Virus record (IMG/VR): IMGVR_UViG_3300037608_000250
Span: 2,590-34,589 of that record
Strand: one strand, 5' to 3'
Length of the DNA: 32,000 nt
DNA from: a virus
Shown: piece after piece, positions 1,329 through 21,667 of the stretch
How positions within the stretch are numbered: position 1 is the stretch's first letter
Layout: the number at the start of each line of letters is the position of its first letter
The notes under the pieces: model-generated
The model's database searches: none
What the model saw: the letters and a program-made list of their open reading frames with translations, nothing else
Told to the model about the DNA's origin: nothing
Made by a program: the position numbers and the translations under genes

Positions 1329-2795
1329 ATGAAGATGGGAGATACTTATATGATTAAAGAGATTATTGCCGCCAACGAAAACGTCACGCCCAACAGTCGT
1401 GAGATAGCGGTTTTGAAAGAAAACTTCCCATCCTGCTTTCACATGGACGGTACATTTGATATTGAACGTTTCAAAGAATTTCTGTGTGATAAGGTTTCGG
1501 TCACGGGCGAAGGATACGAATTGAATTTTCTCGGTAAAAATTATGCCCGTCTGCTTGCCTCCGTGGATACAACTACAGTAATTTTACCGGACGAGGAACA
1601 TAACGCCAAGCCGGAGAACGCCGCCAGCGAAAACATCTATATTAGTGGCGATAATTTGGACGGGTTGAAGCATCTTCTTAAATCATACTCAGGAAATGTT
1701 AAATGTATTTACATAGATCCACCGTATAATACTGGTACTGACGGTTTCGTATATAATGACAGCTTCAATTTCACCGTTGAGGAACTGTCCAAAAAACTGA
1801 GCATTGATGAAGAACAGGCAAAGCGCATACTGGATTTGACAAAGCGTGGCTCTGCATCCCATTCTGCATGGTTGATGTTCATGTACTCACGTCTTCAATT
1901 GGCAAGGGATCTATTGAAAAAGGATGGCGTGATTGTTATTGCAATTGATGATAATGAATTCCACTCATTAAAAATGATATGTGATGAAATTTTTGGTGAG
2001 GAAAATTTCATTTCATCTATGGTTTGGTCTGCTGGTCGTAAAAATGATTCTACCTTTATTTCGAATTCTCATGAATATATGCTTTGCTATTTTAGAGATA
2101 AAGCAAAAATGCTGAGCGACAAAGCGGAGTGGAGAACGCGAAAGGAGGGCTTAGATGACATCTATGCTTATTACGACAAGATAAAAAAAGCACACAGCAA
2201 CGATTATGATACTATGCAAGTTAAGTTAAGAGATTGGTATACAAGTCTAGACGATAACATGGCTGCCAAGCGGCATAGTCACTACAAATGTATAAATTCT
2301 GTCGGCATATACTTCTCATCAGATATTTCGTGGCCGGGTGGCGGTGGCCCCAAATATGAAGTTCTGCACCCTGTAACAAAAAGACCTTGCAAAATACCTG
2401 AACGTGGCTGGGTATATCCGACAAAAGAACGAATGCTGGAAGTAATTGAGCAAAATCTTGTCCATTTTGGACCGGATGAAACTACTGTCCCATGTAGCAT
2501 AACTTACCTTAAAGATAATGAATATGAAGTACCATATAGTGTATTTTATAAAGATGGTCGTGCCGCTACTAAAAGACTAAAAAATTTACTTGGTGAGGGC
2601 GTTTTTACTAATCCTAAAGACGAAGAAATCTTGTCAAAACTTATTAGATTTATGACAGATAACAATAGTATTGTTGTTGACTTTTTTTCTGGCTCAGCGT
2701 CAACGGCACACGCAGTATTCTTAGAGAATATTACCCAAAAAGACAGTCACAGAAAATTTATAGTTATTCAGTTACCGGAGAATCTTGATGAATAA
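1329..2795 (+). CDS. mod: Type III restriction-modification Mod subunit (beta-class N6-adenine methyltransferase), first 488 codons, ending at an in-frame TAA
   Basis: Motif IV IYIDPPYNTG lies near the N-terminus and motif I VVDFFSGSASTAHA near the C-terminus, the order typical of Type III Mod. The gene is followed by res. The real start is probably ATG 1350 (GGGAG SD 8 nt upstream). Confidence 0.85.
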   Translation: MKMGDTYMIKEIIAANENVTPNSREIAVLKENFPSCFHMDGTFDIERFKEFLCDKVSVTGEGYELNFLGKNYARLLASVDTTTVILPDEEHNAKPENAASENIYISGDNLDGLKHLLKSYSGNVKCIYIDPPYNTGTDGFVYNDSFNFTVEELSKKLSIDEEQAKRILDLTKRGSASHSAWLMFMYSRLQLARDLLKKDGVIVIAIDDNEFHSLKMICDEIFGEENFISSMVWSAGRKNDSTFISNSHEYMLCYFRDKAKMLSDKAEWRTRKEGLDDIYAYYDKIKKAHSNDYDTMQVKLRDWYTSLDDNMAAKRHSHYKCINSVGIYFSSDISWPGGGGPKYEVLHPVTKRPCKIPERGWVYPTKERMLEVIEQNLVHFGPDETTVPCSITYLKDNEYEVPYSVFYKDGRAATKRLKNLLGEGVFTNPKDEEILSKLIRFMTDNNSIVVDFFSGSASTAHAVFLENITQKDSHRKFIVIQLPENLDE

Positions 2796-2840
2796 TTTAA
2801 TAATTCCACACAAACAGAGCGTACAAATCTTAAAAAGGTA

Positions 2841-3389
2841 TTGGACTTTCTTGACAGAACATCACATCCACACACTTTGGATTGGATTGGAATTGAACGC
2901 TTAGGAAGAGTTCGTAATAACCTCATAATCAATTATCCCAACACCACTGTTGATCTCGGTTTCAAACATTATACACTTGTCGAGCCGTCCGAAAACGCGT
3001 TGGACAAGCTGGAAAAATTCACACCCGATGAAAGTGGTATGTTGATCAAGAATACTGTTCTGGACGATTTCGGCACACCAACCGTCCTTGCTACATGGCT
3101 TGTGCGTGATGGCTACGGATTCACTTCTTCTGTCGAGGAGCTCGACCTCGTGGGATACAAGGGATATTTCATCGGCAAGCACCTGTACCTCATCGACCCA
3201 AATTTGTCACAAGCGGCAATTGAGGCGATCGTCGTGAAATATGAAACTGACGGCAACTTTAACCCGGAGAATGTGGTCCTCTTTGGCTACAGCTTCACAT
3301 GGACGGAAACCGAGCAGCTGCAAACAAACCTGAAACGGCTGAAAGATACGGAGAAGAATCTACGTGTTAATTTCGACATTCGTTATTAA
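2841..3389 (+). CDS. mod: C-terminal ~180 codons of the same Type III Mod, in the same reading frame as 1329..2795
   Basis: 1329 and 2841 are in the same frame, and the only stop between them is TAA 2793-2795. The sequence ...TLDWIGIERLGRV...DLGFKHYTL...VLATWLVRDGYGF... matches the usual Mod C-terminal region that follows the QLPE box. The annotated TTG start has no SD. Confidence 0.7.
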   Translation: MDFLDRTSHPHTLDWIGIERLGRVRNNLIINYPNTTVDLGFKHYTLVEPSENALDKLEKFTPDESGMLIKNTVLDDFGTPTVLATWLVRDGYGFTSSVEELDLVGYKGYFIGKHLYLIDPNLSQAAIEAIVVKYETDGNFNPENVVLFGYSFTWTETEQLQTNLKRLKDTEKNLRVNFDIRY

Positions 3390-3401
3390 GGGGGGGCAAT
3401 T

Positions 3402-6365
3402 ATGGACTTAATTCTTCAGAAAGATTTGCCCCACCAGCAAAAAGCTATTGATGCGGTATGTGCCGCTTTTATCGATGTACCGATTACAGCACCGACTCAA
3501 TTCTATGAAAATCCGCATATCTCACTTACTGACCAACGCCTTACTGCGAATATCAGTGCCCAACAGGAGAGTATTCCCGCTGATTATCGCGGAGGTGCAC
3601 CTATCGGTGACTGTCTCAATCTAGATATTAAAATGGAAACTGGTACGGGCAAGACCTACGTTTACACAAAAGTGATGTTTGAATTGCAAAAGCGTTACGG
3701 CATCAATAAATTCATTATTGCTGTTCCATCACTTGCCATTAAAGCAGGAACAGCGCAGTTTTTACAGGATGAATATGCCAGACGCCATTTTACGGATGGT
3801 TGCGGTTACGGTACTGAAATAGAAGTCGGTTTGCTTGAAGCGCCGAAAAACAAAAGAAAAGGACGTTCCTATTTCCCGAGTGTTGTCAGCGATTTCATCA
3901 AGGGCTCATGCCAGAACTCAAAGAAAATATATGTCATGTTGGTCAATATGCACCTGCTTGTTGTCAGGAAAGACGGAATGCTCAGCCGCGACGATTACGA
4001 TTACGGTGCGGAGGGTTTTTACCGTCCGCTGGACGCGCTGAAAGCTACACGCCCGTTTGTCATAATCGACGAACCTCATCGCTTTTCACGTGACCAGAAG
4101 GCTTTTTCGGTCATCACTGATGAAATAAAACCCCAGTGCATTATACGCTTCGGTGCAACCTTCCCGGAAACGAGCAGCGGGCGTGGCAAGAATAAAATTA
4201 CTGTCAAGGACTACCATAATCTGTTATATGACCTAAACGCCTGTGAAGCATTTAATCAGAACCTTATCAAGGGTGTTGCAAAAGAGCATTTTGAGCCTGT
4301 TTCTAAGAGGGACGAAAAGGTAAAAATCACCTCGATAGCCAGCCGAGATTCCGTTTCGTTTCAATACAAGCGGCGCGATGAAACCACAAAATCCTATACG
4401 CTCAAGACTGATGATTCGCTTTCCATTATCAGCGATGCCTTTGAGGGTATCACCGTCTCCGCTATTGGCACCTCTACCGTGGAGTTTTCCAACGGGATAG
4501 TAAAGACCTCGGGTGAAGAACTGGATGTGGATATCTATATGACGTCCTATCAAGAGCAGATGATACGACTCGCTCTTGAGCGACATTTTGAAACAGAGCG
4601 GGAGAATTTCTGCAATCGAACATTTAAAATAAAAACTCTTGCTTTGTTTTTCATCGATGATATCACCTCCTACCGTCCCGACGCAGAGGGAAAACAACCG
4701 TATCTTCTGTTGGCATTTGAGCGTCTACTCAAAGAGCGAATAGAGGCTGTGATAGCCACATTGGATGAGCATGACAGTGAATACCGAACCTATCTCGAAA
4801 CAAGCATTGCAAACCCATCCGCTTGTCATGCGGGTTATTTTTCGCAAGACAACAACGACTCAGACGAAGAGGTAGCAAAAGAAGTCGATGTGATTCTTCA
4901 CGGCAAAAAGCAGCTTCTTTCATTCAAGTATGCAGATGGCAGCTATAATACGCTCCGTTTTCTGATTTCTAAATGGACACTCAAGGAGGGATGGGACAAT
5001 CCGAATGTATTCACCATCGCAAAACTGCGCTCCAGCGGTAGCGATATCAGCAAGCTTCAGGAGGTCGGACGCGGTCTGCGTCTGCCAGTAGATGAGAACG
5101 GAAACCGCATTTCCAACGAGGAATTCCAACTGAACTACATCGTAGATTTCACCGAAGCGGACTTTGCCATTCGCCTTGTCGAGCAGATAAACGGTGAAAT
5201 TCCGCAATCTTCCTCCATCAGTGAGGAGCGTCTCATACAGGTAGCAAAGAAGCTGGGCATAACCTCAGACGAGTTGTTTGACATACTGTATTCAGAAAAT
5301 CATTATATCGACAGACACTACAATATCAAACTGGAAACAAGAGATGCTTTCTTTGCGGAGTATCCAGACTTTTCTGCTGGACTGTCCACCGGCAAGGTCA
5401 AAGACCGCAATGTTACAAAGCCACAACCCATCAAAATCCGGAAGGCAGTATACAGCGAGATTCGAGAGCTGTGGGAAAAAATCAATCAACGCTATTTGCT
5501 GTTTTACGACGCAGATTTGGATGCTGATATGGACGCTATCGTCTTGTCGCTGCTTGAGCAAAAGGGCGTTTTCAGCGATGTGGTCATGACCAGCACAAGA
5601 GATATCGTCGAAAGCGACGGTTCGCAGATGACCACAGCCACAGGCACTGGTGTTTCATATACGGTAACACGTCCCATCGCCTACAGCGTATTTCTAAAAC
5701 GAATAATGAAAGCAACAAATGTTCCGATAACTGTCCTACATCAAGCCTTGTGCGCATATGCCGAGAAACATGGTACCGTTGAAGCGAAATATATCAACGA
5801 AAGCACCGTCGCAGCATTCTGCTCCGAATTCCAGGCATGGCGAATAAAAAATCTACAAGGACGCTTTCACTATAAAAAGAGCAACGTTCCGATTGGCTCA
5901 ACCGCTTTGACCTATGAGGATGGCAAACCGCGCAAGGATATTGCCCAAGGGCGTATCGGCAAGACATTAGTTCCGGGCGCGCCAAGCAAAAAATATCTGT
6001 ATGATTCCTTTGCCTACGATTCGCCGCTTGAGCAAGAAAACATCCAATCTGATATTTCAACGGTCGTTGTTTATGGTAAAATTCCTCGCTGCAGCATTGC
6101 GATACCGACGATCACAGGTGGGATGTATAGTCCAGATTTCATGTATGTCGTACAGCGAGCGTCTGGCGAAAAGGTGCTCAATATTGTGGTCGAAACAAAA
6201 GATGTGGAAAACAAAGCCGTTTTGCGTGAAGAAGAAATTGCAAAAATTGGCTGTGCCGAGGTATTCTTTGATATGCTCTCAAAAGACGGATATACCGTTT
6301 ATTTCCACAAACAATTGAACAATAAAAAGATGGAACAGATTATCAATGATGTGTTGAGGATCTAA
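3402..6365 (+). CDS. res: Type III restriction enzyme Res subunit (SF2 helicase-like ATPase + PD-(D/E)xK nuclease)
   Basis: Walker A / motif I KMETGTGKTYVY, motif II VIIDEPHRF, C-terminal nuclease SPDFMYVV...NIVVETKD. GGGGGG SD lies upstream, 12 nt after the mod stop. Confidence 0.9.
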   Translation: MDLILQKDLPHQQKAIDAVCAAFIDVPITAPTQFYENPHISLTDQRLTANISAQQESIPADYRGGAPIGDCLNLDIKMETGTGKTYVYTKVMFELQKRYGINKFIIAVPSLAIKAGTAQFLQDEYARRHFTDGCGYGTEIEVGLLEAPKNKRKGRSYFPSVVSDFIKGSCQNSKKIYVMLVNMHLLVVRKDGMLSRDDYDYGAEGFYRPLDALKATRPFVIIDEPHRFSRDQKAFSVITDEIKPQCIIRFGATFPETSSGRGKNKITVKDYHNLLYDLNACEAFNQNLIKGVAKEHFEPVSKRDEKVKITSIASRDSVSFQYKRRDETTKSYTLKTDDSLSIISDAFEGITVSAIGTSTVEFSNGIVKTSGEELDVDIYMTSYQEQMIRLALERHFETERENFCNRTFKIKTLALFFIDDITSYRPDAEGKQPYLLLAFERLLKERIEAVIATLDEHDSEYRTYLETSIANPSACHAGYFSQDNNDSDEEVAKEVDVILHGKKQLLSFKYADGSYNTLRFLISKWTLKEGWDNPNVFTIAKLRSSGSDISKLQEVGRGLRLPVDENGNRISNEEFQLNYIVDFTEADFAIRLVEQINGEIPQSSSISEERLIQVAKKLGITSDELFDILYSENHYIDRHYNIKLETRDAFFAEYPDFSAGLSTGKVKDRNVTKPQPIKIRKAVYSEIRELWEKINQRYLLFYDADLDADMDAIVLSLLEQKGVFSDVVMTSTRDIVESDGSQMTTATGTGVSYTVTRPIAYSVFLKRIMKATNVPITVLHQALCAYAEKHGTVEAKYINESTVAAFCSEFQAWRIKNLQGRFHYKKSNVPIGSTALTYEDGKPRKDIAQGRIGKTLVPGAPSKKYLYDSFAYDSPLEQENIQSDISTVVVYGKIPRCSIAIPTITGGMYSPDFMYVVQRASGEKVLNIVVETKDVENKAVLREEEIAKIGCAEVFFDMLSKDGYTVYFHKQLNNKKMEQIINDVLRI

Positions 6366-6563
6366 ATATCCCGTATTATACGTGTAATGTTAATTATCAA
6401 TAGTGCTAAATATAGACCAACGGCTTTTCGACAGTGCAGAATAATCCGTAGTATAGGGCTTACTGCTGTATCAAAGTCTTTTAACAACTGAAGTACCATG
6501 CATTGTCTAGACAATAATAATGACAGCCCTGGTTTAAACGCGATTTCCCGAGTTAACTAAACT

Positions 6564-7226
6564 CTATCCGATTTCTTTTCGTATTTGTTTTAGAAGTTCA
6601 GTGGCATTCTTGAACACATGCTCAGGAGGGATGTTTGCTGGTGAAGTACTTAAAAGGTCAAGAAAGAAAGTGGTCGCTTTGTCTATAACAAGCTGGCTTG
6701 AGAAGATAGAAAACTCCCCCCACTTTTTTTTAAACATCGACTCAATCTTATCGCGAAGTTCTTTAAATGTTTCTGCATTTTCTATGATAATTCCATGTTC
6801 CGATTTCATATAACCTTGCATAGACCCAACACTATCTAACTTGGATTTAAGATCATTATACTCATCATCACTTAGGTTATCGGTCCGTCTCGCTACTATT
6901 TGATCTAATATTGATTTCACATCATCTACCTTAACTGTAAAACTTGAAAGATCGTGTTTCTTTATTGTTTCATAATACAATAGCGCCTGCGACGCCATTT
7001 CGGCTAATTCTACATAATAAGGCAAGCGCTTATTACGCCTATAATCCTCCTCTCTCTGCTGATATTGTTGTTTAGACAAATACCGATTTGCGAAGTAGGA
7101 AATTGTTCCACCGATGATTGCCCCAAGTAATCCTGCCCCGCCAGTGATCAATGAAGGCCAAAGATATACTGGTTGAGTTGAAGCCTCTTGAATTAATTCT
7201 CTTAGAATTGAAATGACCCCTTTCAA
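6564..7226 (-). CDS. Hypothetical membrane-anchored protein (one N-terminal TM helix plus a helical/coiled cytoplasmic part)
   Basis: 220-aa ORF. Hydrophobic, Gly-rich segment WPSLITGGAGLLGAIIGGTISYF, then a charged helical region. Low GC. The start is uncertain: TTG 7226 has no SD, and an internal AAAGGGG precedes in-frame ATT codons. Confidence 0.55.
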   Translation of the reverse strand: MKGVISILRELIQEASTQPVYLWPSLITGGAGLLGAIIGGTISYFANRYLSKQQYQQREEDYRRNKRLPYYVELAEMASQALLYYETIKKHDLSSFTVKVDDVKSILDQIVARRTDNLSDDEYNDLKSKLDSVGSMQGYMKSEHGIIIENAETFKELRDKIESMFKKKWGEFSIFSSQLVIDKATTFFLDLLSTSPANIPPEHVFKNATELLKQIRKEIG

Positions 7227-12131: not shown

Positions 12132-13229
12132 GTGAACGGAAACATGATCTTAACCTGCGACGTGATGGATGGGCTTTCACAGTTGACGGCAAAATCCGTC
12201 CATTGTTGCGTTACCTCTCCTCCCTACTACGGTCTCCGGGACTATGGCGTTGACGGACAAATCGGACTGGAGGCGACGCTGCAAGAGTATATAAACAAGC
12301 TTGTCACGGTGTTTCGTGAAGTGAGGCGGGTGCTTCGAGACGAGGGAGTATTGTTTCTGAACCTCGGTGATTCGTATGCCGGTTCGGGAATGGGCGCCGC
12401 GAACTATCTTGACAGCGCGACTGATAAACAGAAATCAAACATCGGAAGCATGGCGGTAAAGGGACGCGGTGGCAATACATATGGGTTGAAGCCAAAGGAT
12501 TTAATGGGAATCCCGTGGCGTGTCGCTTTTGCATTGCAAGCCGATGGATGGTATTTACGACAGGATATCATTTGGCACAAACCTAATCCCATGCCCGAGA
12601 GTGTCCATGATCGCTGTACAAAGGCGCATGAGTATCTTTTTCTTTTGTCAAAAAATGCGAGGTACTACTTCGATGCGCAAGCTATTAAAGAGCATGCAGT
12701 CGGGTTTAACAACGATCCAATCGCGGGTAGTAAGGGAGCATTTGGACCACCTCAAAACAGACGGAGAATGCATGTCCCATCAGGCTGGGATATCGATAAG
12801 GGATCTCATGGAGCATTTCATAAAGAAGGTCGTCGAAAGGGCAATGCAAAAACGTTTCGCGGAGGCGGCGCGTACATTGTGAGACGGTCATTTGATAACG
12901 ATGGCGTAGTGGCGCGGGAGAGTCATGGCAATGAACGGAACGAAACAGGCTTGCGGAACAAGCGCAGTGTCTGGACCGTCGCTTCCCATCCATACGCAGA
13001 GGCGCACTTCGCAACCTTTCCAACAAAGCTGATCGAACCGTGCATCTTGGCTGGTAGTCCAAAGAGTGGCATAGTACTCGATCCCTTTTTTGGAAGCGGA
13101 ACGACCGGCGAGGTCGCAATAAAGTACGGACGCGAATGCATTGGCATTGAACTAAATCCGACGTATGTCGAACTGGCGCGAAAGAGAATATCTGCGGTTC
13201 AGATTTCGTTGATGCAAGGAGGCAATTGA
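12132..13229 (+). CDS. Orphan beta-class DNA methyltransferase (N6_N4_Mtase family; the SPPY motif suggests N4-cytosine or N6-adenine)
   Basis: Motif IV CVTSPPYYGLRDYG is N-terminal and motif I VLDPFFGSGTTGEVA is C-terminal. GGAGGG SD. No cognate nuclease lies adjacent. Confidence 0.85.
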   Translation: MNGNMILTCDVMDGLSQLTAKSVHCCVTSPPYYGLRDYGVDGQIGLEATLQEYINKLVTVFREVRRVLRDEGVLFLNLGDSYAGSGMGAANYLDSATDKQKSNIGSMAVKGRGGNTYGLKPKDLMGIPWRVAFALQADGWYLRQDIIWHKPNPMPESVHDRCTKAHEYLFLLSKNARYYFDAQAIKEHAVGFNNDPIAGSKGAFGPPQNRRRMHVPSGWDIDKGSHGAFHKEGRRKGNAKTFRGGGAYIVRRSFDNDGVVARESHGNERNETGLRNKRSVWTVASHPYAEAHFATFPTKLIEPCILAGSPKSGIVLDPFFGSGTTGEVAIKYGRECIGIELNPTYVELARKRISAVQISLMQGGN

Positions 13230-13490
13230 ATGAATCTCTACAAAGTTCAAAACGGGGATGAGGAATGTTGTGTATTCGTGTTCGCGAAATCGAGGGGCAG
13301 AGCGAAAGTGCTGTTTTCAGAGTATTTTGAGGGTTGGGGCTGGGGCGCTCACAAGAATGATCTCTTTCTGGCTGCAAGAACGAAGCTGATGAGCAAGGAC
13401 GTTGGAGGCAGCGAGGAAGTATGCGACGAAGACTGCAGAAGATTGGCTGCGCTGGGGATCTGCTTCCTGCCCGACATGGAGTGCGACTAG
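13230..13490 (+). CDS. Hypothetical protein (86 aa)
   Basis: Starts 1 nt after the methyltransferase stop. No family recognised. Confidence 0.45.
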   Translation: MNLYKVQNGDEECCVFVFAKSRGRAKVLFSEYFEGWGWGAHKNDLFLAARTKLMSKDVGGSEEVCDEDCRRLAALGICFLPDMECD

Positions 13491-13491
13491 C

Positions 13492-14541
13492 ATGAACAAA
13501 ACGAAAATCGATTGGGCAGATATGACATGGAATCCCGTAACCGGATGCCTGCACGGTTGCGAATACTGCTATGCACGGAGAATCGCTCAGAGGTTTGGCA
13601 ATAGCATCATTACGCCTGAAGAAGCAAAAAGCATGATGGAAATTGTCCTCGGTTATGAAGAAGGCGTCGAATTCGAGATAAGCAGAAGCGGTGTGGCTCT
13701 TAGTAAGCCTGTTCATTCGTTTGAAACAAAAGTGGCGTATCCCTTTGGGTTTGCGCCTACGTTTCATCGATACCGCCTGAAGGAACCGCAGCACATAAAA
13801 AAGCCGCAGAGGATCTTCGTTTGTTCAATGGCGGATCTGTTCGGCGACTGGGTTTCTGATCAATGGGTTCATGAGGTGTTTACCGCGTGCGAGAAGGCGC
13901 CATGGCACCAGTATCTGTTTTTAACAAAGAACGGAGAGAGATATGAGCAATTAGGGCTCCTTCCGGACAAAGACAATTTCTGGTATGGAACAACGCGCAC
14001 AGGCGCTTCATCGAGACTTGAGCACGGAGCATCAGACCATGGAAATACGTTCTTGTCGATTGAGCCTATTCTTGCGCCGCTGGATGAAGTAACTCTTGGA
14101 GCTATTGAGTTCTGGGACTGGGTCATCATTGGCGCGGAAACCGGCAGCCGCAAAGGCAAGGTGAATCCGAAGCGGGAGTGGGTCGAGCGCATTGCAAACA
14201 CCTGCCTTGCTGCGGAAGTACCGGTATTCATGAAATCAACGTTTCGGGAACTCATGGGCAAGGACTTCATTCAGCAGACACCGTGGGATAGGTTATCGAA
14301 AGAATCGGCGAGGGAGGAAAAAGGTAGAGCGTCATCAGTCCATGACCGCATAGCACCTGAATGCGCCGGCATCGTGAGCGTCGCGGTCAAGCGCGATATC
14401 CCCGGCAAGTTCCATATCCTGCAGCAGCTTGAACACGTAAAGGACATCCAGCCGGGAGTGCTTTGCGACATCGACGACATTGATGCCCGGCCGGTCCATG
14501 ACGATATTGTAGAGGCGAAGTTCGAAAGTGTTCATGGATGA
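13492..14541 (+). CDS. Phage Gp37/Gp68 family protein (DUF5131) with a CX3CX2C cluster and an unusually long C-terminal tail
   Basis: MNKTKIDWADMTWNPVTGCLHGCEYCYARR is the family's signature N-terminus. The domain appears to end near ...VPVFMKS...TPWD (~14290), yet the frame stays open to 14541. I prefer ATG 13492 over the ORF-track start at 13402. Confidence 0.7.
   Translation: MNKTKIDWADMTWNPVTGCLHGCEYCYARRIAQRFGNSIITPEEAKSMMEIVLGYEEGVEFEISRSGVALSKPVHSFETKVAYPFGFAPTFHRYRLKEPQHIKKPQRIFVCSMADLFGDWVSDQWVHEVFTACEKAPWHQYLFLTKNGERYEQLGLLPDKDNFWYGTTRTGASSRLEHGASDHGNTFLSIEPILAPLDEVTLGAIEFWDWVIIGAETGSRKGKVNPKREWVERIANTCLAAEVPVFMKSTFRELMGKDFIQQTPWDRLSKESAREEKGRASSVHDRIAPECAGIVSVAVKRDIPGKFHILQQLEHVKDIQPGVLCDIDDIDARPVHDDIVEAKFESVHG
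14335..14535 (-). CDS. Possible 66-aa winged-helix protein, antisense to the tail of the Gp37/Gp68 ORF
   Basis: MNTFELRLYNIVMDRPGINVVDVAKHSRLDVLYVFKLLQDMELAGDIAL reads like a wHTH, but no SD lies upstream. It is mutually exclusive with, or overlaps, the plus-strand reading. Confidence 0.3.
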   Translation of the reverse strand: MNTFELRLYNIVMDRPGINVVDVAKHSRLDVLYVFKLLQDMELAGDIALDRDAHDAGAFRCYAVMD

Positions 14542-15117: not shown

Positions 15118-15435
15118 TTGTGCCAAATTGCCATAGAATGGATAAGAAAACAAGTTCAAAAATATGATTATATGCCCTCGCAACATGCTATTGGACGAAT
15201 GGGAGAAAGACAGATTACGTTTGAGCAGATAGAAGATTGCATACTCAATGGTGATGTCGTTGAATGTAATGACTTCCCCGATCAGGACGTTTGTATTGTC
15301 TTCAAACCAAGAGGACGAAATGATTACTATGTAGTTGTTGCGGCTACACTTCCCTGCACAATAGTTACAGTATGCAATCCGAGACCAGACTGCTGGATTC
15401 TTGAACATCAGACTATGATGAGGAGAAAAAAATGA
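15118..15435 (+). CDS. DUF4258-family protein (putative toxin component)
   Basis: AAAGGGGGA SD. MPSQHAIGRMGERQITFEQIEDCILNGDVVE fits the DUF4258 H-A..R..ER.I core. It overlaps the next gene by 4 nt. Confidence 0.7.
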   Translation: MCQIAIEWIRKQVQKYDYMPSQHAIGRMGERQITFEQIEDCILNGDVVECNDFPDQDVCIVFKPRGRNDYYVVVAATLPCTIVTVCNPRPDCWILEHQTMMRRKK

Positions 15436-15887
15436 ATAACATCAAATGCCATATCTGCAATACCGAAATGGAAGCAAAGGAGACTTCAATTTCTGCGGGT
15501 TGGGGGAAATACAAGGTAGATATAAGTGGCGTTACCGGATACGTATGTCCAAATTGCGGAGAGGTCATCTATTCTTCTGAGGAAGCTAAAATGATCCTAA
15601 AACTTGGTCAGGAAATGTCAGCTTTAAACAATCCGCCTGACTTATTAAATATTTCTGAAGTTGCGGATCTTTTACGGGTCAGTCAGCAAACAATTTACAA
15701 TAAAATTCGGGATGGAAGTCTAAAAGCAAGGAAGATAGGTCGTGAATGGCGATTCTTTAGAAAGGATATTCAAGCTTATCTTGATGAACCGAGCTTCGGC
15801 AATGCTCTGCTTGCAGCAAGAAACAGTGGGGATGCAATAACCCAAAAGGATCAAGAAGTCATCAAGCGCGAGATGGAGGATATGTAG
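15432..15887 (+). CDS. Zinc-ribbon (YgiT/MqsA-type) + HTH_17 DNA-binding protein (putative antitoxin/regulator)
   Basis: CHICNTEM...YVCPNCGEVIYSSEEA is a CxxC...CxxC ribbon. The C-terminus LLNISEVADLLRVSQQTIYNKIRDGSLKARKIGREWRF is an excisionase-type HTH. Confidence 0.75.
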   Translation: MNNIKCHICNTEMEAKETSISAGWGKYKVDISGVTGYVCPNCGEVIYSSEEAKMILKLGQEMSALNNPPDLLNISEVADLLRVSQQTIYNKIRDGSLKARKIGREWRFFRKDIQAYLDEPSFGNALLAARNSGDAITQKDQEVIKREMEDM

Positions 15888-16658
15888 ATGGTACGGCCGC
15901 TTCCGAAGAGTATTGCCCAGCATCTTGTTGAAGATGCTGGGCTCAATAATCCGGTAGACCTTTTCGCTTTCTGTGAATCCATCGAGATAAATACTGTTTT
16001 TTGTGATATTGATGCGGAAGCGCTTCTGGTATGTAAGGATGGGAAACGCAAAATCGTGTTAAAGAGAAATATTATTCCACCAAGAACGAGATTCTCGATT
16101 GCTCATGAATTGGGACATTTCTTTATTCCTTGGCATGTTCGCCTACTCTATCTCTGTAACGAAAAAGACATAATGCGCAACGGGGGCAAAATTGAAGAGA
16201 ACGAAGCGAATGCCTTTGCAGCAGAACTTCTAATGCCCGAAAGAATCTTAAAAGACAATAGGCTCACACAGTGTAATCTGGAAACGATCGGTTATTTATC
16301 GTCTATATGTAAAGTATCCATGACCGCAGCCGCAATTAGGTTAAATGATTGTGTTGATCAAGAAGTCGCGATCGTATTCTGTAAAGGCAAGGATGTACTG
16401 TGGACGAACGTTGGGAAGCTTTTTCCTGGACGGATAAGAAGAGAAAGGCCATATAGTGAAACAATAAAAGACTTGAAAACAGATTGCTTGCACTCACACT
16501 CACGCTCAAGAAAAATCCGTGGTCAATCCTGGCTTTTAAACTATCCGGACGCAACTCTAACTGAGCAAATGATTCTTATGCCCGGTTTTGATGGTATACT
16601 GACAATCCTACGATTCGAAGATGCTGATGATTTTGAAGAAAAAGATCTTGATTGGTAA
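15888..16658 (+). CDS. ImmA/IrrE-family zinc metallopeptidase (Peptidase_M78-like)
   Basis: HEXXH box FSIAHELGHFFIPWH, followed by EANAFAAELLMP, typical of ImmA/IrrE. The start abuts the upstream stop (TAGATG). Confidence 0.8.
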   Translation: MVRPLPKSIAQHLVEDAGLNNPVDLFAFCESIEINTVFCDIDAEALLVCKDGKRKIVLKRNIIPPRTRFSIAHELGHFFIPWHVRLLYLCNEKDIMRNGGKIEENEANAFAAELLMPERILKDNRLTQCNLETIGYLSSICKVSMTAAAIRLNDCVDQEVAIVFCKGKDVLWTNVGKLFPGRIRRERPYSETIKDLKTDCLHSHSRSRKIRGQSWLLNYPDATLTEQMILMPGFDGILTILRFEDADDFEEKDLDW

Positions 16659-16826: not shown

Positions 16827-17057
16827 TCATTCGACTTGCTTTCCTTGATCGTCATGCCAGTACACCCTGAAGCAACCGCTTTGGAATACACTATTATCCG
16901 GATAGGCTTTTTCAAGTTTTTTGATTGCCTCAAAGTCACTGCAACGTTCCATTTGATGTGACTTAGTGCTGAAGCAATTATCCAATGGGCCAGAGTCAAA
17001 TTGCGCATTTACTGCGTCTATAAAGGCGGGGACATTGGATGCAAACACGTAAAGCAT
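16827..17057 (-). CDS. Hypothetical 76-aa protein
   Basis: Strong GAGGAGG SD 7 nt upstream of the ATG. Low GC. The palindrome TTGCTTtAAGCAA (17081-17093) lies upstream. No family recognised. Confidence 0.6.
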   Translation of the reverse strand: MLYVFASNVPAFIDAVNAQFDSGPLDNCFSTKSHQMERCSDFEAIKKLEKAYPDNSVFQSGCFRVYWHDDQGKQVE

Positions 17058-17203
17058 AGCATTAGCCTCCTCTCATAATTGCTTTAAGCAAATCTTATCA
17101 CAAGAGGGTAAAGGATTTCTCCCCACATTCGGATGATAATCAGAAGCTATAATGCAAATCTATTTCATTATTGACATAACAGTACACAATTAAGGAGACA
17201 GAA

Positions 17204-17728
17204 ATGAGCAGAGTTGATGAAATGAAGAGATATATTGATCAAGCTGTACAAACCGCCTTTGAGGCAGGGCGGCTATCATACGCCCAAACTCAAAAGGATG
17301 CATACAAGGCGACAGAGCGAAGACTCTACGCTATCCCAATTCTGAAAGCCAGGCTGATAGAAGAGCAAGACCACCTTGCCGAACTAATCTCTTCACAGGC
17401 ACCAGAGAAGATCAGTCGTAGTCTGGATGTTGTGCGCCTTCGGCGAGGGGGGAGAAGACTTTCGGATGAGGATCTCTTGAAAGCACAGATCCAATACTCC
17501 GAATCCATGATCGCGAGCATGGAACACGAAATCGGCGAGGTAGAAAATGGGCTGGAGCGGATTCGGCCGGATTTCTATTATCGTACAGTGCCGATGAAGT
17601 ATTTCGATGGTTTGACGGATGATATAGCTGCAGAAATTCTAAAGTGCGATCCCAGTACAATTCGGCGCAATAGATCAAGATTGGTAAAGTATATTGCTAT
17701 ATGGTTTTATGGGGTAACGGCTTTATGA
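17204..17728 (+). CDS. Putative phage late-gene regulator (sigma-70 region-4-like HTH; ArpU/RinA-like)
   Basis: AAGGAGA SD. C-terminus YYRTVPMKYFDGLTDDIAAEILKCDPSTIRRNRSRLVKYI is a region-4-type HTH. Its position ahead of the packaging genes fits this role. Confidence 0.55.
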   Translation: MSRVDEMKRYIDQAVQTAFEAGRLSYAQTQKDAYKATERRLYAIPILKARLIEEQDHLAELISSQAPEKISRSLDVVRLRRGGRRLSDEDLLKAQIQYSESMIASMEHEIGEVENGLERIRPDFYYRTVPMKYFDGLTDDIAAEILKCDPSTIRRNRSRLVKYIAIWFYGVTAL

Positions 17729-17781
17729 TTGAATTTGGTTTTTGAAAGGATCTAGTATCGATATGCACCATAAAAAAAATA

Positions 17782-17790
17782 TGCTATTAT
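17782..17790 (+). promoter_or_regulatory. Extended -10-like element TGCTATTAT upstream of the four-gene island
   Basis: TGnTATTAT at 17782-17790 with no good -35. An alternative is TTGACT (17812-17817) with a weak -10. Low-confidence call. Confidence 0.25.
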
Positions 17791-17868
17791 GTTCTCGTTA
17801 GGATGATTATCTTGACTGTGTGGTCAGATTTCTCTGATTTATTTCAATTAAAATAGGAGGCAATTCAT

Positions 17869-18261
17869 ATGGGATCAACAGGTACGGGGAGATTTGGAAA
17901 TTATAGAATTGGATTAGCTTCAGGAGATGGTAAAAATTCAAAGGAAGATTCTATGAGTACTAAAGAGTTTATTTGTCCTGACAATATTGAGTTCATTCAA
18001 ATCGAGGATGTGGCGATTTCCGAATATTTTACAAAGCATAACAGCCTACCGGCGCAACACACTTCAGTAAGATTGAAAAGAGCTCTTGAATTCGGCAGAC
18101 TTGTTATCGAAACATCAGAAAGCTCAGAAACAATTGGTAATTTGCCAACGCAGTATAATTATCTCCTTGAGTGTATCTATAGAGGGAAGACATATTCGGG
18201 TCAGGTTTTAGCATCTGGAGTTGATCCCATCCCATATGTGGTGGTGAATTTGAGTGCATAA
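17869..18261 (+). CDS. Hypothetical 130-aa protein with a Gly-rich N-terminal tail; first gene of the island operon
   Basis: AGGAGG SD 8 nt upstream. MGSTGTGRFGNYRIGLASGDGKNSKE is followed by a compact domain. No family recognised. Confidence 0.65.
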   Translation: MGSTGTGRFGNYRIGLASGDGKNSKEDSMSTKEFICPDNIEFIQIEDVAISEYFTKHNSLPAQHTSVRLKRALEFGRLVIETSESSETIGNLPTQYNYLLECIYRGKTYSGQVLASGVDPIPYVVVNLSA

Positions 18262-19576
18262 TCGACGGATCCTAGTTGTTGGCGAAGTTTTTGTTGATCT
18301 CCATCTCGATTTGTTAAGTGGACATAGTCCACTGGCAAGACTGGGTGGTATTTTTCATACCGCAAGAGCCTTGTCGACTTATAAACTTGAATTCGCGCTG
18401 GCCCACATTTCACCCGATTACCTTGACGAAGACATTAATCTTTACAGTTGTAAGCTAAATAGCATTGGATGCTATAGAATCGGAATAATTAGAAAAGCCA
18501 CAAACATACTACTTGTTTCTGATTCAAAGGAGGTTGGCTTTCAAGGGTACTATAATGTTCTTAAGGATCAAGCAGAGTATATAAACGACATGGATTTCCG
18601 ACAAGTTCTTTGTCGAGTCAAACCCACTGACGTTATTCTTTTTCCTGGACGGTACGACACAATTAGGGTGCTGAATGAATTAAAAAATTTTGATGCCAGT
18701 TTGCATATTGACTGCCACTATGATAGTGATAATCTTTTAACAGAGTTTAACGGAAATATCTCTACTTTATTTCTGTCAACATCAGCAGATATTTTCCGTA
18801 ATACATGCAACGGAAATCTCGAAAAAATACTGGATTTCTATTCTCGAAATAACATAGAAAGAATAGTTGTAAAAGAGAGTCGAGGGGGATCATTCTGTTA
18901 TGATTATGCAACAAAAGACATCCATGAAGCACCCGCTTTTCACGTCCACACAATGCACTCTGTTGGAGTTGGAGATGTATTTGATGCTTGTTTCGTTGGA
19001 TATTTAGACAATTATGACATTCAGAACAGAATGAAGCTTGCATCTTATTGTGCTGCCCAATATGCTGCGACATTATCATTCGAATGCTTTCAGGAATCTG
19101 TGCAATCAATTTGTGGACATGAAAAAGAGATCTTATCTCTTCAAGGTATCAGACTATCGTGGGATGATAGGGGCAAAAAAAATATCTATATTGCCGCGCC
19201 AGATTTTCCGGATGTTGATACAAGTTTATTGGACAAACTAGTCGAATGCTTAGAGTATCATAACTTCAGACCCCGACTTCCAATAAGAGAAAATGGCTTG
19301 GCAGATAAATCAATCAGCATTGAAGATGAATTTAAACTCTATAAAAAAGATATCGCTTTGCTTCAAGAATGTGATCTTCTAATAGCCGTTTTGCTTTTTA
19401 ATGATCCTGGAACACTAGTTGAACTAGGGATGTTTAAACAAATGGGTAAACCAACAATAGTATTTGATCCATTTGGGATCTGCACCAATATGTTTGTTAA
19501 ACATACACCTGACTATTTGTGTGTATCGATTGAAGATGTGCTCGTTTCCTCATATATCTCTCTTCAAAGGAGATAA
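18254..19576 (+). CDS. Fusion protein: PfkB-family kinase domain + nucleoside 2-deoxyribosyltransferase/DNPH1-like domain
   Basis: N-terminal half: RILVVGEVFVD, LARLGGIFHTARAL and SVGVGDVFDACFVGY (PfkB GAGD box). C-terminal half (~19166-19573): KNIYIAAPDF and CDLLIAVLLFNDPGTLVELGMFKQMGKPTIVF (the NDT-type DxGTxxExG box). The GTG start overlaps the upstream ORF by 8 nt. Confidence 0.85.
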   Translation: MHNRRILVVGEVFVDLHLDLLSGHSPLARLGGIFHTARALSTYKLEFALAHISPDYLDEDINLYSCKLNSIGCYRIGIIRKATNILLVSDSKEVGFQGYYNVLKDQAEYINDMDFRQVLCRVKPTDVILFPGRYDTIRVLNELKNFDASLHIDCHYDSDNLLTEFNGNISTLFLSTSADIFRNTCNGNLEKILDFYSRNNIERIVVKESRGGSFCYDYATKDIHEAPAFHVHTMHSVGVGDVFDACFVGYLDNYDIQNRMKLASYCAAQYAATLSFECFQESVQSICGHEKEILSLQGIRLSWDDRGKKNIYIAAPDFPDVDTSLLDKLVECLEYHNFRPRLPIRENGLADKSISIEDEFKLYKKDIALLQECDLLIAVLLFNDPGTLVELGMFKQMGKPTIVFDPFGICTNMFVKHTPDYLCVSIEDVLVSSYISLQRR

Positions 19577-19583
19577 CTAATTA

Positions 19584-20219
19584 ATGGATAATTACGATGG
19601 CCTCTTATTAGCTTCTGGTGGCATGGATTCAACCGTTTTGTCTTATGATTTAAACGAGAAGGGGGAGAATATCCTACTATTATTCCTTGATTATGGTCAA
19701 CACTGCATGAAACAAGAGTATGATACATTACTTCAAGTTGTACCGGAAACCTATAGAGAACATATAAAGGTTTTGAATATTAGTGATATATATTTTGGGT
19801 CAAACTCCAGAATGATAAAAGAAGCTGATCTATGGAAGGAACAAGTTGTAGCAGATGACTTATACTTACCGTATCGGAATTTGCTCTTTATCTCCATTGC
19901 ATCTGCCTTTGCACAATCGAAAGGCATAAAGAAAGTATACTCTGCCTTTATAAACAGTAACCATGCGAAAGAAATTGATTGTTCAATGCAGTTTTTTACT
20001 GAGCTGGAAATGATATTAAGAAGTTATGGGTCGATTAAGCTTTGTATGCCCTATCGCGAAATGTCAAAAACTCAAGTTGCTAAACTTGGCTTAAAACTAG
20101 GTGCCCCGATTTGTTTGACATATTCGTGTCAAGTTAACTCACATAGACCATGCGGAGCATGCCCAAATTGTGTTGATAGAATCGAAGCCTTGAATAATGT
20201 AGTTCTTGGTAGAGAGTAA
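19584..20219 (+). CDS. QueC-like PP-loop ATP-pyrophosphatase family protein
   Basis: LLASGGMDSTVLSYDL (SGGxDS), LFLDYGQH, YLPYRNLLFISIA, and C-terminal SCQVNSHRPCGACPNCVDR (a C-x7-C-x2-C-x2-C zinc site). AAGGAG SD. Confidence 0.85.
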   Translation: MDNYDGLLLASGGMDSTVLSYDLNEKGENILLLFLDYGQHCMKQEYDTLLQVVPETYREHIKVLNISDIYFGSNSRMIKEADLWKEQVVADDLYLPYRNLLFISIASAFAQSKGIKKVYSAFINSNHAKEIDCSMQFFTELEMILRSYGSIKLCMPYREMSKTQVAKLGLKLGAPICLTYSCQVNSHRPCGACPNCVDRIEALNNVVLGRE

Positions 20220-20869
20220 TGGATAATACTTGTTTAAATAAATATGTTATTCTATTAAGTGACTTTATATTAAGTATTGAGACTGATTTTATTCCGTTTG
20301 ATGATCAATCTCCGTATTATCATATGGGAGCAACTCTTACTGATTCCATTTTGCAAGCAGGCATCAATTATAAACATGTTGTTTTGCCACGAGTTAATAA
20401 GTTGCTTACTCAATACTCAAGTTTTAATACAACATGTGATTTTATTATACTCATGGATATGATACCACTTGAAGAGCTGATTAATTGGAAGAATAAAGAG
20501 AAGCTTGTTCGAATCGAAGAATTGACATGGTTAATGTATAGAAATGGTATTAACAATGAGAATGAGCTTGCTGAATGGTTGTCCATATCAGATAATTTGG
20601 AGGAATTAATCAGAATAAAAGGTGTCGGGCCTAAAACTGTTGACTATATATGTATGCTGGCAGGCATACAGTCTTTTGCCATAGATAGACATCTATATAG
20701 CTTTCTTGAAATGTCAGGAATTTATATAAAGACGTATCAGGAAGCCATCAGAATATATACTGCAACATCTGAATACTTAAACATTAACAAGTACCAGCTT
20801 GACAAAAATATTTGGACATATATGTCAACAAAAAATCCGCAAGTAGCAAATAACATCGATAGTTTTTAA
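20219..20869 (+). CDS. HhH-GPD superfamily DNA glycosylase-like protein (EndoIII/OGG-like, no Fe-S Cys cluster)
   Basis: LTDSILQAGINY... then LIRIKGVGPKTVDYICMLAGIQSFAIDRHLYSF. The hairpin-helix GVGxKT retains the Lys and the downstream Asp is retained. The ATG overlaps the upstream TAA (TAATG). Confidence 0.75.
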   Translation: MDNTCLNKYVILLSDFILSIETDFIPFDDQSPYYHMGATLTDSILQAGINYKHVVLPRVNKLLTQYSSFNTTCDFIILMDMIPLEELINWKNKEKLVRIEELTWLMYRNGINNENELAEWLSISDNLEELIRIKGVGPKTVDYICMLAGIQSFAIDRHLYSFLEMSGIYIKTYQEAIRIYTATSEYLNINKYQLDKNIWTYMSTKNPQVANNIDSF

Positions 20870-20938
20870 ATGCGGGTCCTTCCAAGGGTGGAGGGGCATG
20901 CGGGGCTGGCGACTCCCGGAATATCTCTCGCTCTGATA

Positions 20939-20968
20939 AAAAAAGCGGAAGCACTTCCTTCCGCTTTT
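20939..20968 (+). terminator. Rho-independent terminator closing the island operon (A-run/T-run flanks, so possibly bidirectional)
   Basis: AAAAAA-GCGGAAG-cacttc-CTTCCGC-TTTT. Confidence 0.7.
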
Positions 20969-21239
20969 ACTACGCGCAAACTCCCTGCTATAGGCAAATT
21001 CAGAATTGAAAAGCGGAAATGACTAAGCAAACTCTCATACAATTTGGGATGATCTATCTCACAGATCAGCCGGCGCAGATATCCCAAAGTAGAAATCGTT
21101 CTCTGCGTGTATCAGTTGGCCATAGTTCTTTGTTTCTGGTATTTCGTTCTATACTGTGCTAGAATTGGGCAATTGAGCAAAACGGTAGTCTTTATTTAAA
21201 AAACAAAGCCAAGATCATAGATATTATGCTTAAAAGTTA

Positions 21240-21268
21240 TTGCGCATTAGTGCAAATTGGAATATAAT
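21240..21268 (+). promoter_or_regulatory. Sigma-70-type promoter with an overlapping imperfect palindrome (TA operator candidate)
   Basis: TTGCGC (21240-21245), a 17-nt spacer, then TATAAT (21263-21268). TTGCGCattaGTGCAA spans the -35. It lies 28 nt upstream of the toxin ATG. Confidence 0.55.
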
Positions 21269-21295
21269 ATAGACGATTCGGAGGGGTAATTCGGG

Positions 21296-21667
21296 ATGTT
21301 TCGCATAAACTTTTATGCAGATGCGAATGGAAGGCAGCCTGTAAAAGAATATCTGGATGATTTACGAAGCTCTTCCGAGACGAACAAAGATGACAGAATC
21401 AGATTGAAAAAGATAACTGAGTACATGGATGTACTCGCCGCAAACGGAACCAGAGCTGGAAAACCCTATGTTGAGCATATTGACGGGGATATCTGGGAAC
21501 TGCGTCCGCTTAGCACAAGGATCTTCTTCTTTTGCTGGTTAGGCGATAAGTTCATAATGCTGCATCATTTCGAAAAGAAGACAAGAAAAACACCTGAGCG
21601 AGAGAAAGAAAAGGCAAAACGCGAAATGAAGGACTTCATCCAAAGGAGTGAGAAACGTGAGAAATAA
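21296..21667 (+). CDS. Phage Gp49-like (DUF891) RelE/HigB-family toxin
   Basis: GRQPVKEYLDDL...GKPYVEHIDGDIWELRP...RIFFFCWLGDKFIMLHHFEKKTRKTPEREKEKA is the classic Gp49-family pattern. GGAGGGG SD. Confidence 0.85.
   Translation: MFRINFYADANGRQPVKEYLDDLRSSSETNKDDRIRLKKITEYMDVLAANGTRAGKPYVEHIDGDIWELRPLSTRIFFFCWLGDKFIMLHHFEKKTRKTPEREKEKAKREMKDFIQRSEKREK

Follow-up and report, generated by a model that had tools for sequence, protein, structure and literature searches.

The DNA analyzed here, referred to as the window, is a 32,000-nt stretch of a viral genome (IMG/VR virus record IMGVR_UViG_3300037608_000250, positions 2,590 to 34,589) that carries four consecutive genes on its plus strand, here named A, B, C, and D (window positions 17869 to 20869). 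Gene B (18254 to 19576) starts at a GTG codon and encodes, in one open reading frame (ORF) with no internal stop, a 440-residue protein that joins a half with the ribokinase/PfkB fold to a nucleoside 2-deoxyribosyltransferase (NDT) domain. It is preceded by gene A (17869 to 18261), coding for a 130-residue protein with an invariant N terminus, a disordered Gly/Ser-rich tail (residues 1 to 33), and a probable HIRAN-like β domain (residues 35 to 130), and is followed by gene C (19584 to 20219), whose 211-residue product is a QueC-family ATP-dependent ligase of the Cap9-like type, and by gene D (20219 to 20869), whose 216-residue product is a helix–hairpin–helix (HhH)-GPD protein of the archaeal OGG2 type (8-oxoguanine glycosylase/AP lyase). 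The A stop codon and the B GTG codon overlap by 8 nt, and the C/D junction reads TAATG.

To survey this arrangement, ORFs were called in 87 related loci and in the window and were searched with the four window proteins. Genes A, B, and C were found in all 87 loci and D in 83 of them; in one of the four loci without D (L011), the contig stops just after C. In every locus A (about 115 to 140 residues) lies directly upstream of B and is accompanied by C (~210 residues), while D measures ~200 to 220 residues. The order and strand of the genes are constant, and adjacent genes abut or overlap. Represented among the loci are Bacillota, Bacteroidota, Alpha-, Beta-, and Gammaproteobacteria, Planctomycetota, Chlorobiota, Actinomycetes, and TM6. 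A-B-C-D is a self-contained four-gene operon with B as its central enzyme.

A first-pass annotation of the window had singled out B as a single-polypeptide fusion of a PfkB kinase and an NDT-type domain. The fusion is real, as the 440-codon ORF is uninterrupted and has full-length homologs by the hundreds in many phyla. Among the best 120 of 786 matches in a protein search, nearly all are 438 to 447 residues long and 43 to 55% identical to B, and more than 110 homologs of this length span 97 to 100% of the query; their sources include Pelotomaculum, Selenomonas noxia, Gudongella, Alphaproteobacteria, and many metagenomes. A pattern-limited scan of the GTDB species representatives, one genome per species, yielded 101 encoded relatives (~100 of 185,579 representatives) in the groups listed above and in Cloacimonadota. 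Conservation was assessed over 83 distinct sequences with identity down to ~32%, and active-site-type residues are invariant in both halves. The AlphaFold (AF2) model of B, alongside which an alignment of 52 homologs was made, has a mean predicted local distance difference test (pLDDT) score of 93.2 and a predicted template-modeling (pTM) score of 0.91, so that the two domains are modeled as a rigid, confident single body. What had been described as a ~20-residue linker is a helical connector (residues 276 to 307; 19079 to 19174), which is modeled as secondary structure with pLDDT >90, carries invariant G298, W303, and R306, and is not floppy. The annotation also knew of no characterized enzyme with this architecture, and in agreement with this, the only published mention that we found is one sentence (PMC13329287).

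Judged from its sequence, the C-terminal half of B (residues 308 to 440 and the stop codon; 19175 to 19576) is a bona fide NDT domain with the full catalytic set. Residues 311 to 404 match the Pfam family PF05014 (Nuc_deoxyrib_tr) with 53 bits against a cut-off of 28.8, and the domain also matches two PHROG NDT families. The residues invariant among the 83 homologs are Y312, A314 to F318, D366, D384, G386, T387, E390, G392, D405, P406, and N412, and they include the box D384-P-G-T-L-V-E390-L-G392, in which E390 (codon 19421 to 19423) is the predicted nucleophile by alignment with NDTs. The NDT-type C terminus and the position of its Glu (E390), both claimed at the outset, hold. Searched against the Protein Data Bank (PDB), the B family profile retrieved with positions 307 to 435 the NDTs 6evs (E 3.8e-8), 7o62, 8rh3, and 2a0k, and Y312, D366, D384, E390, and N412 align to their counterparts in 6evs and 8rh3. 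We take these residues to correspond to Tyr7, Asp72, Asp92, Glu98, and Asn123 of the Lactobacillus leichmannii NDT, the nucleophile and the ligands of the 3′- and 5′-hydroxyls of the nucleoside; D384 and N412, presumably the equivalents of D92 and N123, would then be ligands of a free 5′-OH. The strong PDB matches are all NDTs; no DNPH1 chain appeared at E values up to 1, and a CMP N-glycosidase (4jen) matched weakly (E 0.058). A DNPH1/Rcl identity of this domain is unsupported, given that its solved relatives are NDTs and that the NDT-type D384 and N412 are kept.

The N-terminal half (residues 1 to 275; 18254 to 19078) has, according to the model, a ribokinase-like α/β fold with a lid. A Foldseek search of the B model against the PDB returned ribokinase/PfkB structures over ~320 columns with E values of ~1e-13 and target TM scores of 0.60 to 0.69, among them LacC (3q1y), IolC (2qcv), ribokinase (1rkd), 2hlz, ketohexokinase, and pseudouridine kinase. 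The B family profile matched, with positions 185 to 270, the PfkB kinases 2qcv (E 1.2e-4) and 6ilr. The match of the N-terminal 300 residues to PF00294 stays below the cut-off (21 versus 25.8 bits) and is limited to profile positions 194 to 288, the C-terminal third; the cut-off is cleared by a few B homologs and by a sister family described below, and the NCBIfam matches are partial PfkB-kinase hits far under their cut-offs. Invariant residues are G10, D15, R29, G31, G32, H35, R38, E93, Q97, Y99, S175-T-S177, K207-E-N-R-G-G212, and S236-x-G238-x-G240-D241, with G238-V-G240-D241 aligned to the GAGD of IolC 2qcv. The NXXE motif is absent: at the corresponding strand end, located by alignment and by comparison with ribokinase, there is an invariant S175-T176-S177, and no conserved N..E. 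Of the "two PfkB signatures" originally ascribed to this half, the GG and GxGD elements are indeed invariant, but PROSITE-style PfkB patterns are matched by none of the 83 family members. It had been suggested that a divergent catalytic box (H-S-V-G-V-G-D) might mark the kinase half as a sensor. This box keeps the catalytic Asp and the anion-hole glycines, and the missing part is NXXE, so that the half may be either a kinase or a pseudokinase.

The two genes that flank B recall the chemistry of protein deazaguanylation, which was discovered in 2025 in type IV CBASS (cyclic oligonucleotide-based antiphage signaling system). There, Cap9 joins 7-carboxy-7-deazaguanine (CDG) to the CD-NTase CdnD at its Gly2 (Wassarman et al., bioRxiv 10.1101/2025.04.06.647259). 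The CdnD N terminus (MGGSGGSFGSGFDPR) follows the motif M(G/S)G(G/S)GG, and its Gly2 carries the linked base (NDG); the TGT-like Cap10 binds this conjugated base and has its catalytic Asp in position at N9, reversal of a transfer has been proposed for the OGG-like Cap11, and the molecule that accepts the protein-linked base was not identified by the authors (10.1101/2025.04.06.647259). In the Qat system, QatB, the partner of QatC, has an essential MGTS N terminus on a long disordered tail (PMC13279940).

Gene C matches PF06508 with 116 bits, the PADLOC QueC model with 88.8 bits, and the TIGR00364 QueC equivalog with 92.9 bits against a cut-off of 150.3; the matches to QatC models are weak (E 1e-3 and 2e-4) and far under the cut-off. 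The best PDB match of the C family profile is Cap9 (9nto_B, E 1.6e-17), followed by the QueC structures 2pg3 and 3bl5. Invariant in the family are the ATP loop S11-G-G-x-D15-S16, Y37-x-Q39-(x)5-E45, R98-N99, D132-C133-xxx-F137, P156-F-(x)4-K162, and the zinc cysteines C182, C190, C193, and C196. These motifs are those listed for Cap9 (PMC13329287), with the exception of the stacking Tyr of YxDC, which is replaced by an invariant E130 (E130-I-D132-C133, not Y-P-D-C). An identification of C as a canonical QueC (preQ0 synthase) was rejected, as the protein scores under the equivalog cut-off and lacks the YPDC motif.

The A proteins begin with the motif MGS[TSA]G[STN]Gx[FL][STG][DNT]Y (MGSxGxGxFxDY), in which, among 83 distinct homologs, M1 and G2 are conserved in all 83, S3 in 82, G5 in 81, G7 in 80, F/L9 in 81, and Y12 in 80. 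Next come a Gly/Ser-rich stretch that varies and a domain of ~95 residues that is conserved. In an AlphaFold model built with 17 homologs, residues 1 to 33 are disordered (pLDDT <50), and residues 35 to 130 form a β-rich domain (pLDDT ~95). The 10 best Foldseek matches of the A model in the PDB are all of HIRAN type (probability 1.0, E 4e-3 to 4e-2), with lp_0118 (3k2y) and the HLTF HIRAN domain with and without DNA at the top and Rad5 next, and HIRAN-named proteins stand near the top of the matches among BFVD viral structures (E 7e-4). On the sequence level, the window protein has no match in the family libraries by single-sequence search, no family other than Pfam HIRAN is matched by more than a single A member (HIRAN weakly, by 3 of 35), and a PDB search with the A profile gave only noise (CNF toxin, ribosomal protein L6) and no solved relative. 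Residues 35 to 130 are thus probably a HIRAN-like domain, as predicted from structure models. Among 1.84 billion representative proteins, A forms 291 clusters, all of stand-alone proteins that match from residue 1. Since the N terminus of A resembles the CdnD and QatB motifs and sits on a disordered tail, and since C is Cap9-like, A is the predicted substrate of C by analogy, with Gly2 (codon 17872 to 17874) as the putative acceptor.

As a single sequence, gene D gives weak HhH matches under the family cut-offs. The D family profile matches the PDB entries 9o00 (E 2.3e-7), 3fhg, 3fhf, and 3knt, and more weakly endonuclease III. The invariant G135-x-G137-x-K139 and D156-R-H158 align to the Lys/Asp segment of HhH-GPD proteins, so that D, by alignment, keeps the catalytic Lys (K139) and Asp (D156).

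Fused and divergent relatives tie these genes together. On the Bacillus cereus plasmid pC1L1 (NZ_CP022446; L095:6980-8956, WP_098221041.1), B and C form one ORF of 658 residues (PfkB-like, NDT, and QueC-like), which is preceded by a Gly-tailed A homolog (6634-6990) and a NUDIX gene (6101-6556), with no OGG-like gene following. Two further Bacillus plasmids carry the B–C fusion by annotation. In the manner of a Rosetta stone, this fusion argues for functional coupling of B and C. A sister family, 24 to 27% identical to B, clears both Pfam cut-offs (PfkB 47 bits, NDT 67.8 bits) and is found as a 403-residue PfkB–NDT fusion on the Pseudomonas aeruginosa plasmid pPUV-6 (L091:5144-7953) and the Moraxella osloensis plasmid pNP7-2 (L092:5074-8733). 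The QueC-like gene of the sister loci ends with SCHKSHLACGNCRGCNKY and has the motif CH(x)5CxxCxGCxK. Small proteins that start with MSGSGGSY and MSGSGGG precede the sister fusions, and the A-family hidden Markov model finds the Moraxella one (E 1.6e-5). The fourth gene encodes either a nitroreductase-family protein or an "anti-phage dGTPase" overlapping the stop of the QueC-like gene, the dGTPase being the one that overlaps on pNP7-2. A complete A-B-C-D cassette was also seen in a cultured Enterobacterales strain, Proteus mirabilis H63 (NZ_OL790811; L096:6602-9592); this record is labeled a plasmid, although at 4.08 Mb it is evidently the chromosome, and the cassette region, at about 3.230 to 3.233 Mb, is unannotated in the PLSDB table. 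The Neotabrizicola plasmid NZ_CP069372 is a further carrier of A-B-C-D.

Genes for guanine nucleotide metabolism recur beside the cassette. Flank clustering placed an HD/HD_assoc dGTPase-like gene next to it in 12 of the 83 loci, from diverse phyla (L015, L021, L033, L037, L040, L042, L048, L066, L067, L073, L079, and L085), usually <300 bp away and on the same strand, on either side; in 4 of the 12, an unannotated protein of 239 to 267 residues is encoded beside the dGTPase-like gene. In Paenibacillus agri a dGTPase stands in the place of D. The dGTPase accounts for 10 of 148 nearest neighbors, every other PADLOC family for three or fewer, and MutT-like NUDIX genes adjoin the cassette in at least six loci. 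OGG, MutT-type NUDIX enzymes, and Dgt all recognize guanine deoxynucleotides or variants at the N7/C8 edge, and dGTPase is the one enzyme that converts a dNTP directly to the nucleoside that an NDT needs. This company is circumstantial evidence that the product contains a 7-deazaguanine deoxynucleoside or deoxynucleotide.

Other neighbors at the related loci are AbiH, PRTase-CE, a zeta toxin, and insertion sequence (IS) integrases, and, across the loci, AbiLi, PifA, AriA, PtuA/B, CBASS cyclases, KwaB, ThsB, HEC-01A, and PDC candidates. One cassette lies at a prophage end beside an AlwI restriction–modification (R-M) system, NUDIX, and SRA-McrA, and another beside serine recombinases and an RHS toxin; plasmids carry the cassette as well. 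Because it is rare and clearly mobile and has defense genes as neighbors, a role in defense or another conflict is likely.

In the window the cassette is a low-GC moron within a prophage, with a GC content of 36 to 41% compared with 55 to 60% in the surrounding prophage. Gene A is preceded by a Shine-Dalgarno sequence, AGGAGG, read from the sequence 8 nt 5′ of its ATG (17855 to 17860, plus strand), and D is followed by a terminator-like hairpin on the same strand (20941 to 20968), with an 11-bp stem and then UUUU (RNA fold −16.1 kcal/mol, z −3.9). The consensus terminator scan does not list this hairpin, a promoter scan gave matches no more frequent than in shuffled sequence, and tandem-repeat and tRNA searches returned nothing relevant. 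A sigma-like late regulator flanks the cassette on one side, and a Gp49/HigB-like toxin, a lambda-type terminase, and a portal protein on the other, the terminase and portal being distantly like those of Faecalibacterium phage FP_Epona. Upstream are a type III R-M system, an HNH nuclease, a DNA methylase, a DUF5131 protein, and a helix–turn–helix (HTH)/M78 pair. For the stretch from 17000 to 21500, no near-identical DNA was found in 5,426 Escherichia coli genomes or 50,697 phage records.

Several of these flanking genes deserve separate mention. The type III R-M system (1329 to 6365; Res at 3402 to 6365) is of low GC, and its Mod gene is apparently split, as the ORF from 1329 to 2795 ends with TAA and the EcoP15I C-terminal domain is encoded in a separate ORF (2841 to 3389). 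An N6/N4 DNA methylase gene is followed by that of the DUF5131 protein, which is radical S-adenosylmethionine-like, related to phage Gp37/Gp68, and matches the PADLOC candidate models PDC-M41B and PDC-M30B (12132 to 14541 for the pair). A gene for an HTH_17/zinc-ribbon protein followed by one for an M78 (ImmA/IrrE-like) peptidase (15432 to 16658) has a low GC content like the cassette and is possibly a moron of its own or a regulatory pair. The Gp49/HigB-like toxin gene (21296 to 21667) directly follows the cassette and precedes the terminase genes, and its product weakly matches PADLOC NsnC.

We give an even chance to the interpretation that A-B-C-D is a conflict-type, probably anti-phage, mobile cassette that links a 7-deazaguanine to a protein, with a deoxynucleotide subsequently built up on that base. 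The parts list is observed, and from it we infer every one of the mechanistic steps that follow. After loss of its initiator Met, A would be acylated at Gly2 by C with CDG or a close analog to give a protein-linked base (NDG), a step that would parallel type IV CBASS and the proposal for QatBC. NDTs, like TGTs, exchange bases through a covalent sugar–carboxylate intermediate that is resolved by N9 of the incoming purine. The NDT half of B may then fill the role that is thought to be Cap10's: it would form a deoxyribosyl-Glu390 intermediate from a 2′-deoxynucleoside donor, most plausibly deoxyguanosine, and N9 of the tethered 7-deazaguanine would resolve the intermediate to yield a protein-tethered 2′-deoxy-7-deazaguanosine. 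The PfkB-fold half could bind the sugar and phosphorylate its 5′-OH, and this phosphorylation would trap the product, since NDTs refuse 5′-phosphorylated substrates. The HIRAN-like domain of A might steer the conjugate to DNA 3′ ends, and the OGG2-like D might cleave or reverse the unusual N-glycosidic bond, either to reset the system or for self-protection. In other lineages a MutT-like NUDIX protein or a dGTPase appears to assume the role of D, and the dGTPase could supply the nucleoside donor as well.

A number of observations weigh against this interpretation. We know of no precedent for an NDT that uses a base tethered to a protein or another macromolecule as its acceptor. Because of the replacement of the stacking Tyr by an invariant Glu in C, the ligated acid may be one other than CDG. 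The kinase half, which lacks NXXE and scores under the Pfam cut-off, could be a binding module only. The HIRAN call, probable as it is, comes from a predicted structure with marginal Foldseek E values (4e-3 for the PDB, 7e-4 for BFVD) and very weak Pfam matches. The dGTPase is a stand-alone defense gene, and its adjacency could stem from co-location in defense islands; a location in such islands is in itself correlative. None of A, B, and D is covered by a PADLOC 2.0 model, and B has no tblastn match in the 50,697 phage records, which is, however, neutral with regard to a role in defense.

In a different reading, which we hold to be possible yet fairly unlikely, the cassette works on small molecules: C makes free 7-amido-7-deazaguanine (ADG), preQ0, or an analog, and B transfers it to deoxyribose and phosphorylates the result to a free non-canonical dNMP, which would serve as an antiviral antimetabolite or in DNA modification, with A as a DNA-end-binding sensor or regulator. 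This is the first of the two readings offered by the first-pass annotation, namely, base exchange on a (deoxy)nucleoside followed by 5′-phosphorylation to a non-canonical nucleotide. Taken as a route to a 7-deazapurine nucleotide, it comes near to our best model, but it missed the decisive A-B-C-D operon, which suggests that the base is tethered to the N-terminal Gly of A and not free. Most QueC catalytic motifs are kept in C, free bases are by established biochemistry the natural substrates of NDTs, the NUDIX and dGTPase neighbors suit the handling of a free modified dNTP, and the fusion of B and C suits small-molecule channeling equally well. What remains unexplained under a small-molecule route is the conserved MGS...G..G of A with its disordered tail, the hallmark of known protein substrates of the QueC family; moreover, C falls under the QueC equivalog cut-off, and no DpdA/TGT, FolE, QueD, or QueE gene is present in the window or among the annotated or scanned neighbors of the related loci, including the nearest ones. 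A Dpd or phage 7-deazaguanine DNA-modification cluster was rejected for the same lack of DpdA/TGT and preQ0-pathway genes nearby.

The preferred interpretation can also be carried further, although we regard this extension as a doubtful one. The cassette might build a conjugate of protein N terminus, 7-amido-7-deazaguanine, 2′-deoxyribose, and phosphate that is set on or near DNA 3′ ends via the HIRAN-like A and forms a covalent protein roadblock for the replication or packaging of phage DNA. The OGG-like D, NUDIX, and dGTPase proteins would in that event be erasers or sanitizers that protect the host. If so, the acceptor long sought for N9 of deazaguanylated proteins would be deoxyribose, and this would, by analogy, hint at the target of the Cap10 transfer in type IV CBASS.

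The second reading of the first-pass annotation, an effector of the DNPH1 type, is less favored and in our estimate unlikely. The NDT domain would act as a hydrolase that destroys deoxynucleosides or deoxynucleotides and thereby starves phage replication, under the control of the PfkB-like half as a sensor and of C-modified A as a switch. The NDT superfamily does include N-glycosidases, as the weak match to 4jen recalls, NXXE is missing from the kinase half, and depleting nucleotides is known as a logic of defense that the dGTPase neighbors would fit. On the other side, the solved structures closest to the NDT domain are those of transferases (6evs, 8rh3, 2a0k), with no DNPH1 among the matches at E values up to 1, the residues for a free 5′-OH (D384 and N412) are invariant, the kinase half has an invariant catalytic Asp and anion hole, which would be unexpected in a pure sensor, and the tight fusion of B and C in Bacillus suggests consecutive chemistry, not a relay from sensor to effector.

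Housekeeping salvage of purines or 7-deazapurines, as guessed for a related gene cluster, Cluster 4 (Biochem J 2026), is very improbable. It would follow from the domain names (kinase, NDT, QueC-like) alone, while the cassette is patchy and rare in the species-representative scan, has clearly spread by horizontal transfer, with a low GC content and placement in prophages, on plasmids, and at IS- or recombinase-flanked sites, has defense-gene neighbors, and includes with the Gly-tailed, HIRAN-like A and the DNA glycosylase-like D two obligatory components that have no role in salvage. Finally, that B consists of two genes joined artificially by an overlooked stop codon or a frameshift near 19100-19170, a possibility raised when the ORF was first annotated, is practically out of the question in view of the more than 110 independent homologs of the same length and full coverage, the invariant connector residues kept by 83 distinct sequences over many phyla, the relatives in GTDB, the confident single-body model, and the sister family of the same architecture that clears both Pfam cut-offs.

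The cassette is informative for the study of protein deazaguanylation because it pairs a ligase and a predicted Gly-tailed substrate of the same kind with an enzyme of textbook type for the transfer of 2′-deoxyribose to purine N9, which is joined to the fold of a sugar or nucleoside kinase and, in some lineages, to the ligase as well. If the proposed route is correct, A would gain +176 Da, then +116 Da, and then +80 Da; the product would be a base-linked protein–nucleotide conjugate of a new kind, the NDT fold would have a new job, and 7-deazaguanine chemistry would be linked to the recognition of DNA 3′ ends. If it is wrong, the cassette is still a widespread uncharacterized candidate defense system that is tractable in Proteus mirabilis and on P. 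aeruginosa and B. cereus plasmids.

Among known enzymes and systems, the NDT half of B shares with the class II NDTs of Bacillus psychrosaccharolyticus (6evs) and L. leichmannii the Pfam family, the catalytic Glu, and the Tyr/Asp/Asp/Asn set. Those NDTs are stand-alone salvage enzymes of ~150 residues, whereas B is fused to a PfkB fold, in Bacillus also to QueC, and belongs to a conflict cassette. The same kind of operon has been noted as QueC Cluster 4, in which PF00294-PF05014 proteins occur beside QueC and for which purine salvage was guessed, under the heading of metabolic diversification (PMC13329287). The pPUV-6 and pNP7-2 loci carry the CH(x)5CxxCxGCxK motif of Cluster 4 together with the PfkB–NDT fusion and a Gly-tailed protein, while the window C has a canonical-like C(x)7CxxCxxC. 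That work makes no mention of a Gly-tailed partner, an OGG-like gene, a HIRAN-like fold, a fusion to QueC, or the defense context (PMC13329287).

Like QatABCD, the cassette consists of four genes of anti-phage type and combines a QueC-family protein with a small partner that has an N-terminal MG(T/S) motif on a disordered tail. It differs in lacking the QatA ATPase and the QatD TatD nuclease, in a C protein (211 residues) without the QatC extension domains, and in a small partner with a β HIRAN-like domain instead of the helical QatB; where QatC has Thr for both the Tyr and the Asp, C keeps the Asp. With type IV CBASS it has in common a ligase of the QueC family (Cap9 being the closest solved relative of C), a protein substrate (here, the predicted one) with a Met-Gly/Ser-Gly-rich N terminus on a flexible tail (MGSxGxG in A), an N-glycosyl enzyme of the base-exchanging kind, an HhH protein that is OGG-like (D paralleling Cap11), and a location in defense islands. 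Unlike type IV CBASS, the cassette has no CD-NTase or cyclic-nucleotide effector (A-B-C-D only, at 83 loci), its putative substrate is a small HIRAN-like protein, and C has a Glu in place of the stacking Tyr of Cap9. Neither the cassette itself nor its precomputed or scanned neighbors include a TGT-family gene, and the TGT-like Cap10 is replaced by the unrelated NDT fold, which works through a Glu–deoxyribosyl intermediate on deoxynucleosides and is here fused to a PfkB-fold kinase-like domain. The cassette belongs neither to type IV CBASS, which needs a CD-NTase and a TGT, nor to Qat, which needs QatA, QatD, and the QatC extensions, and by analogy with both it would constitute a third protein-deazaguanylation system alongside them.

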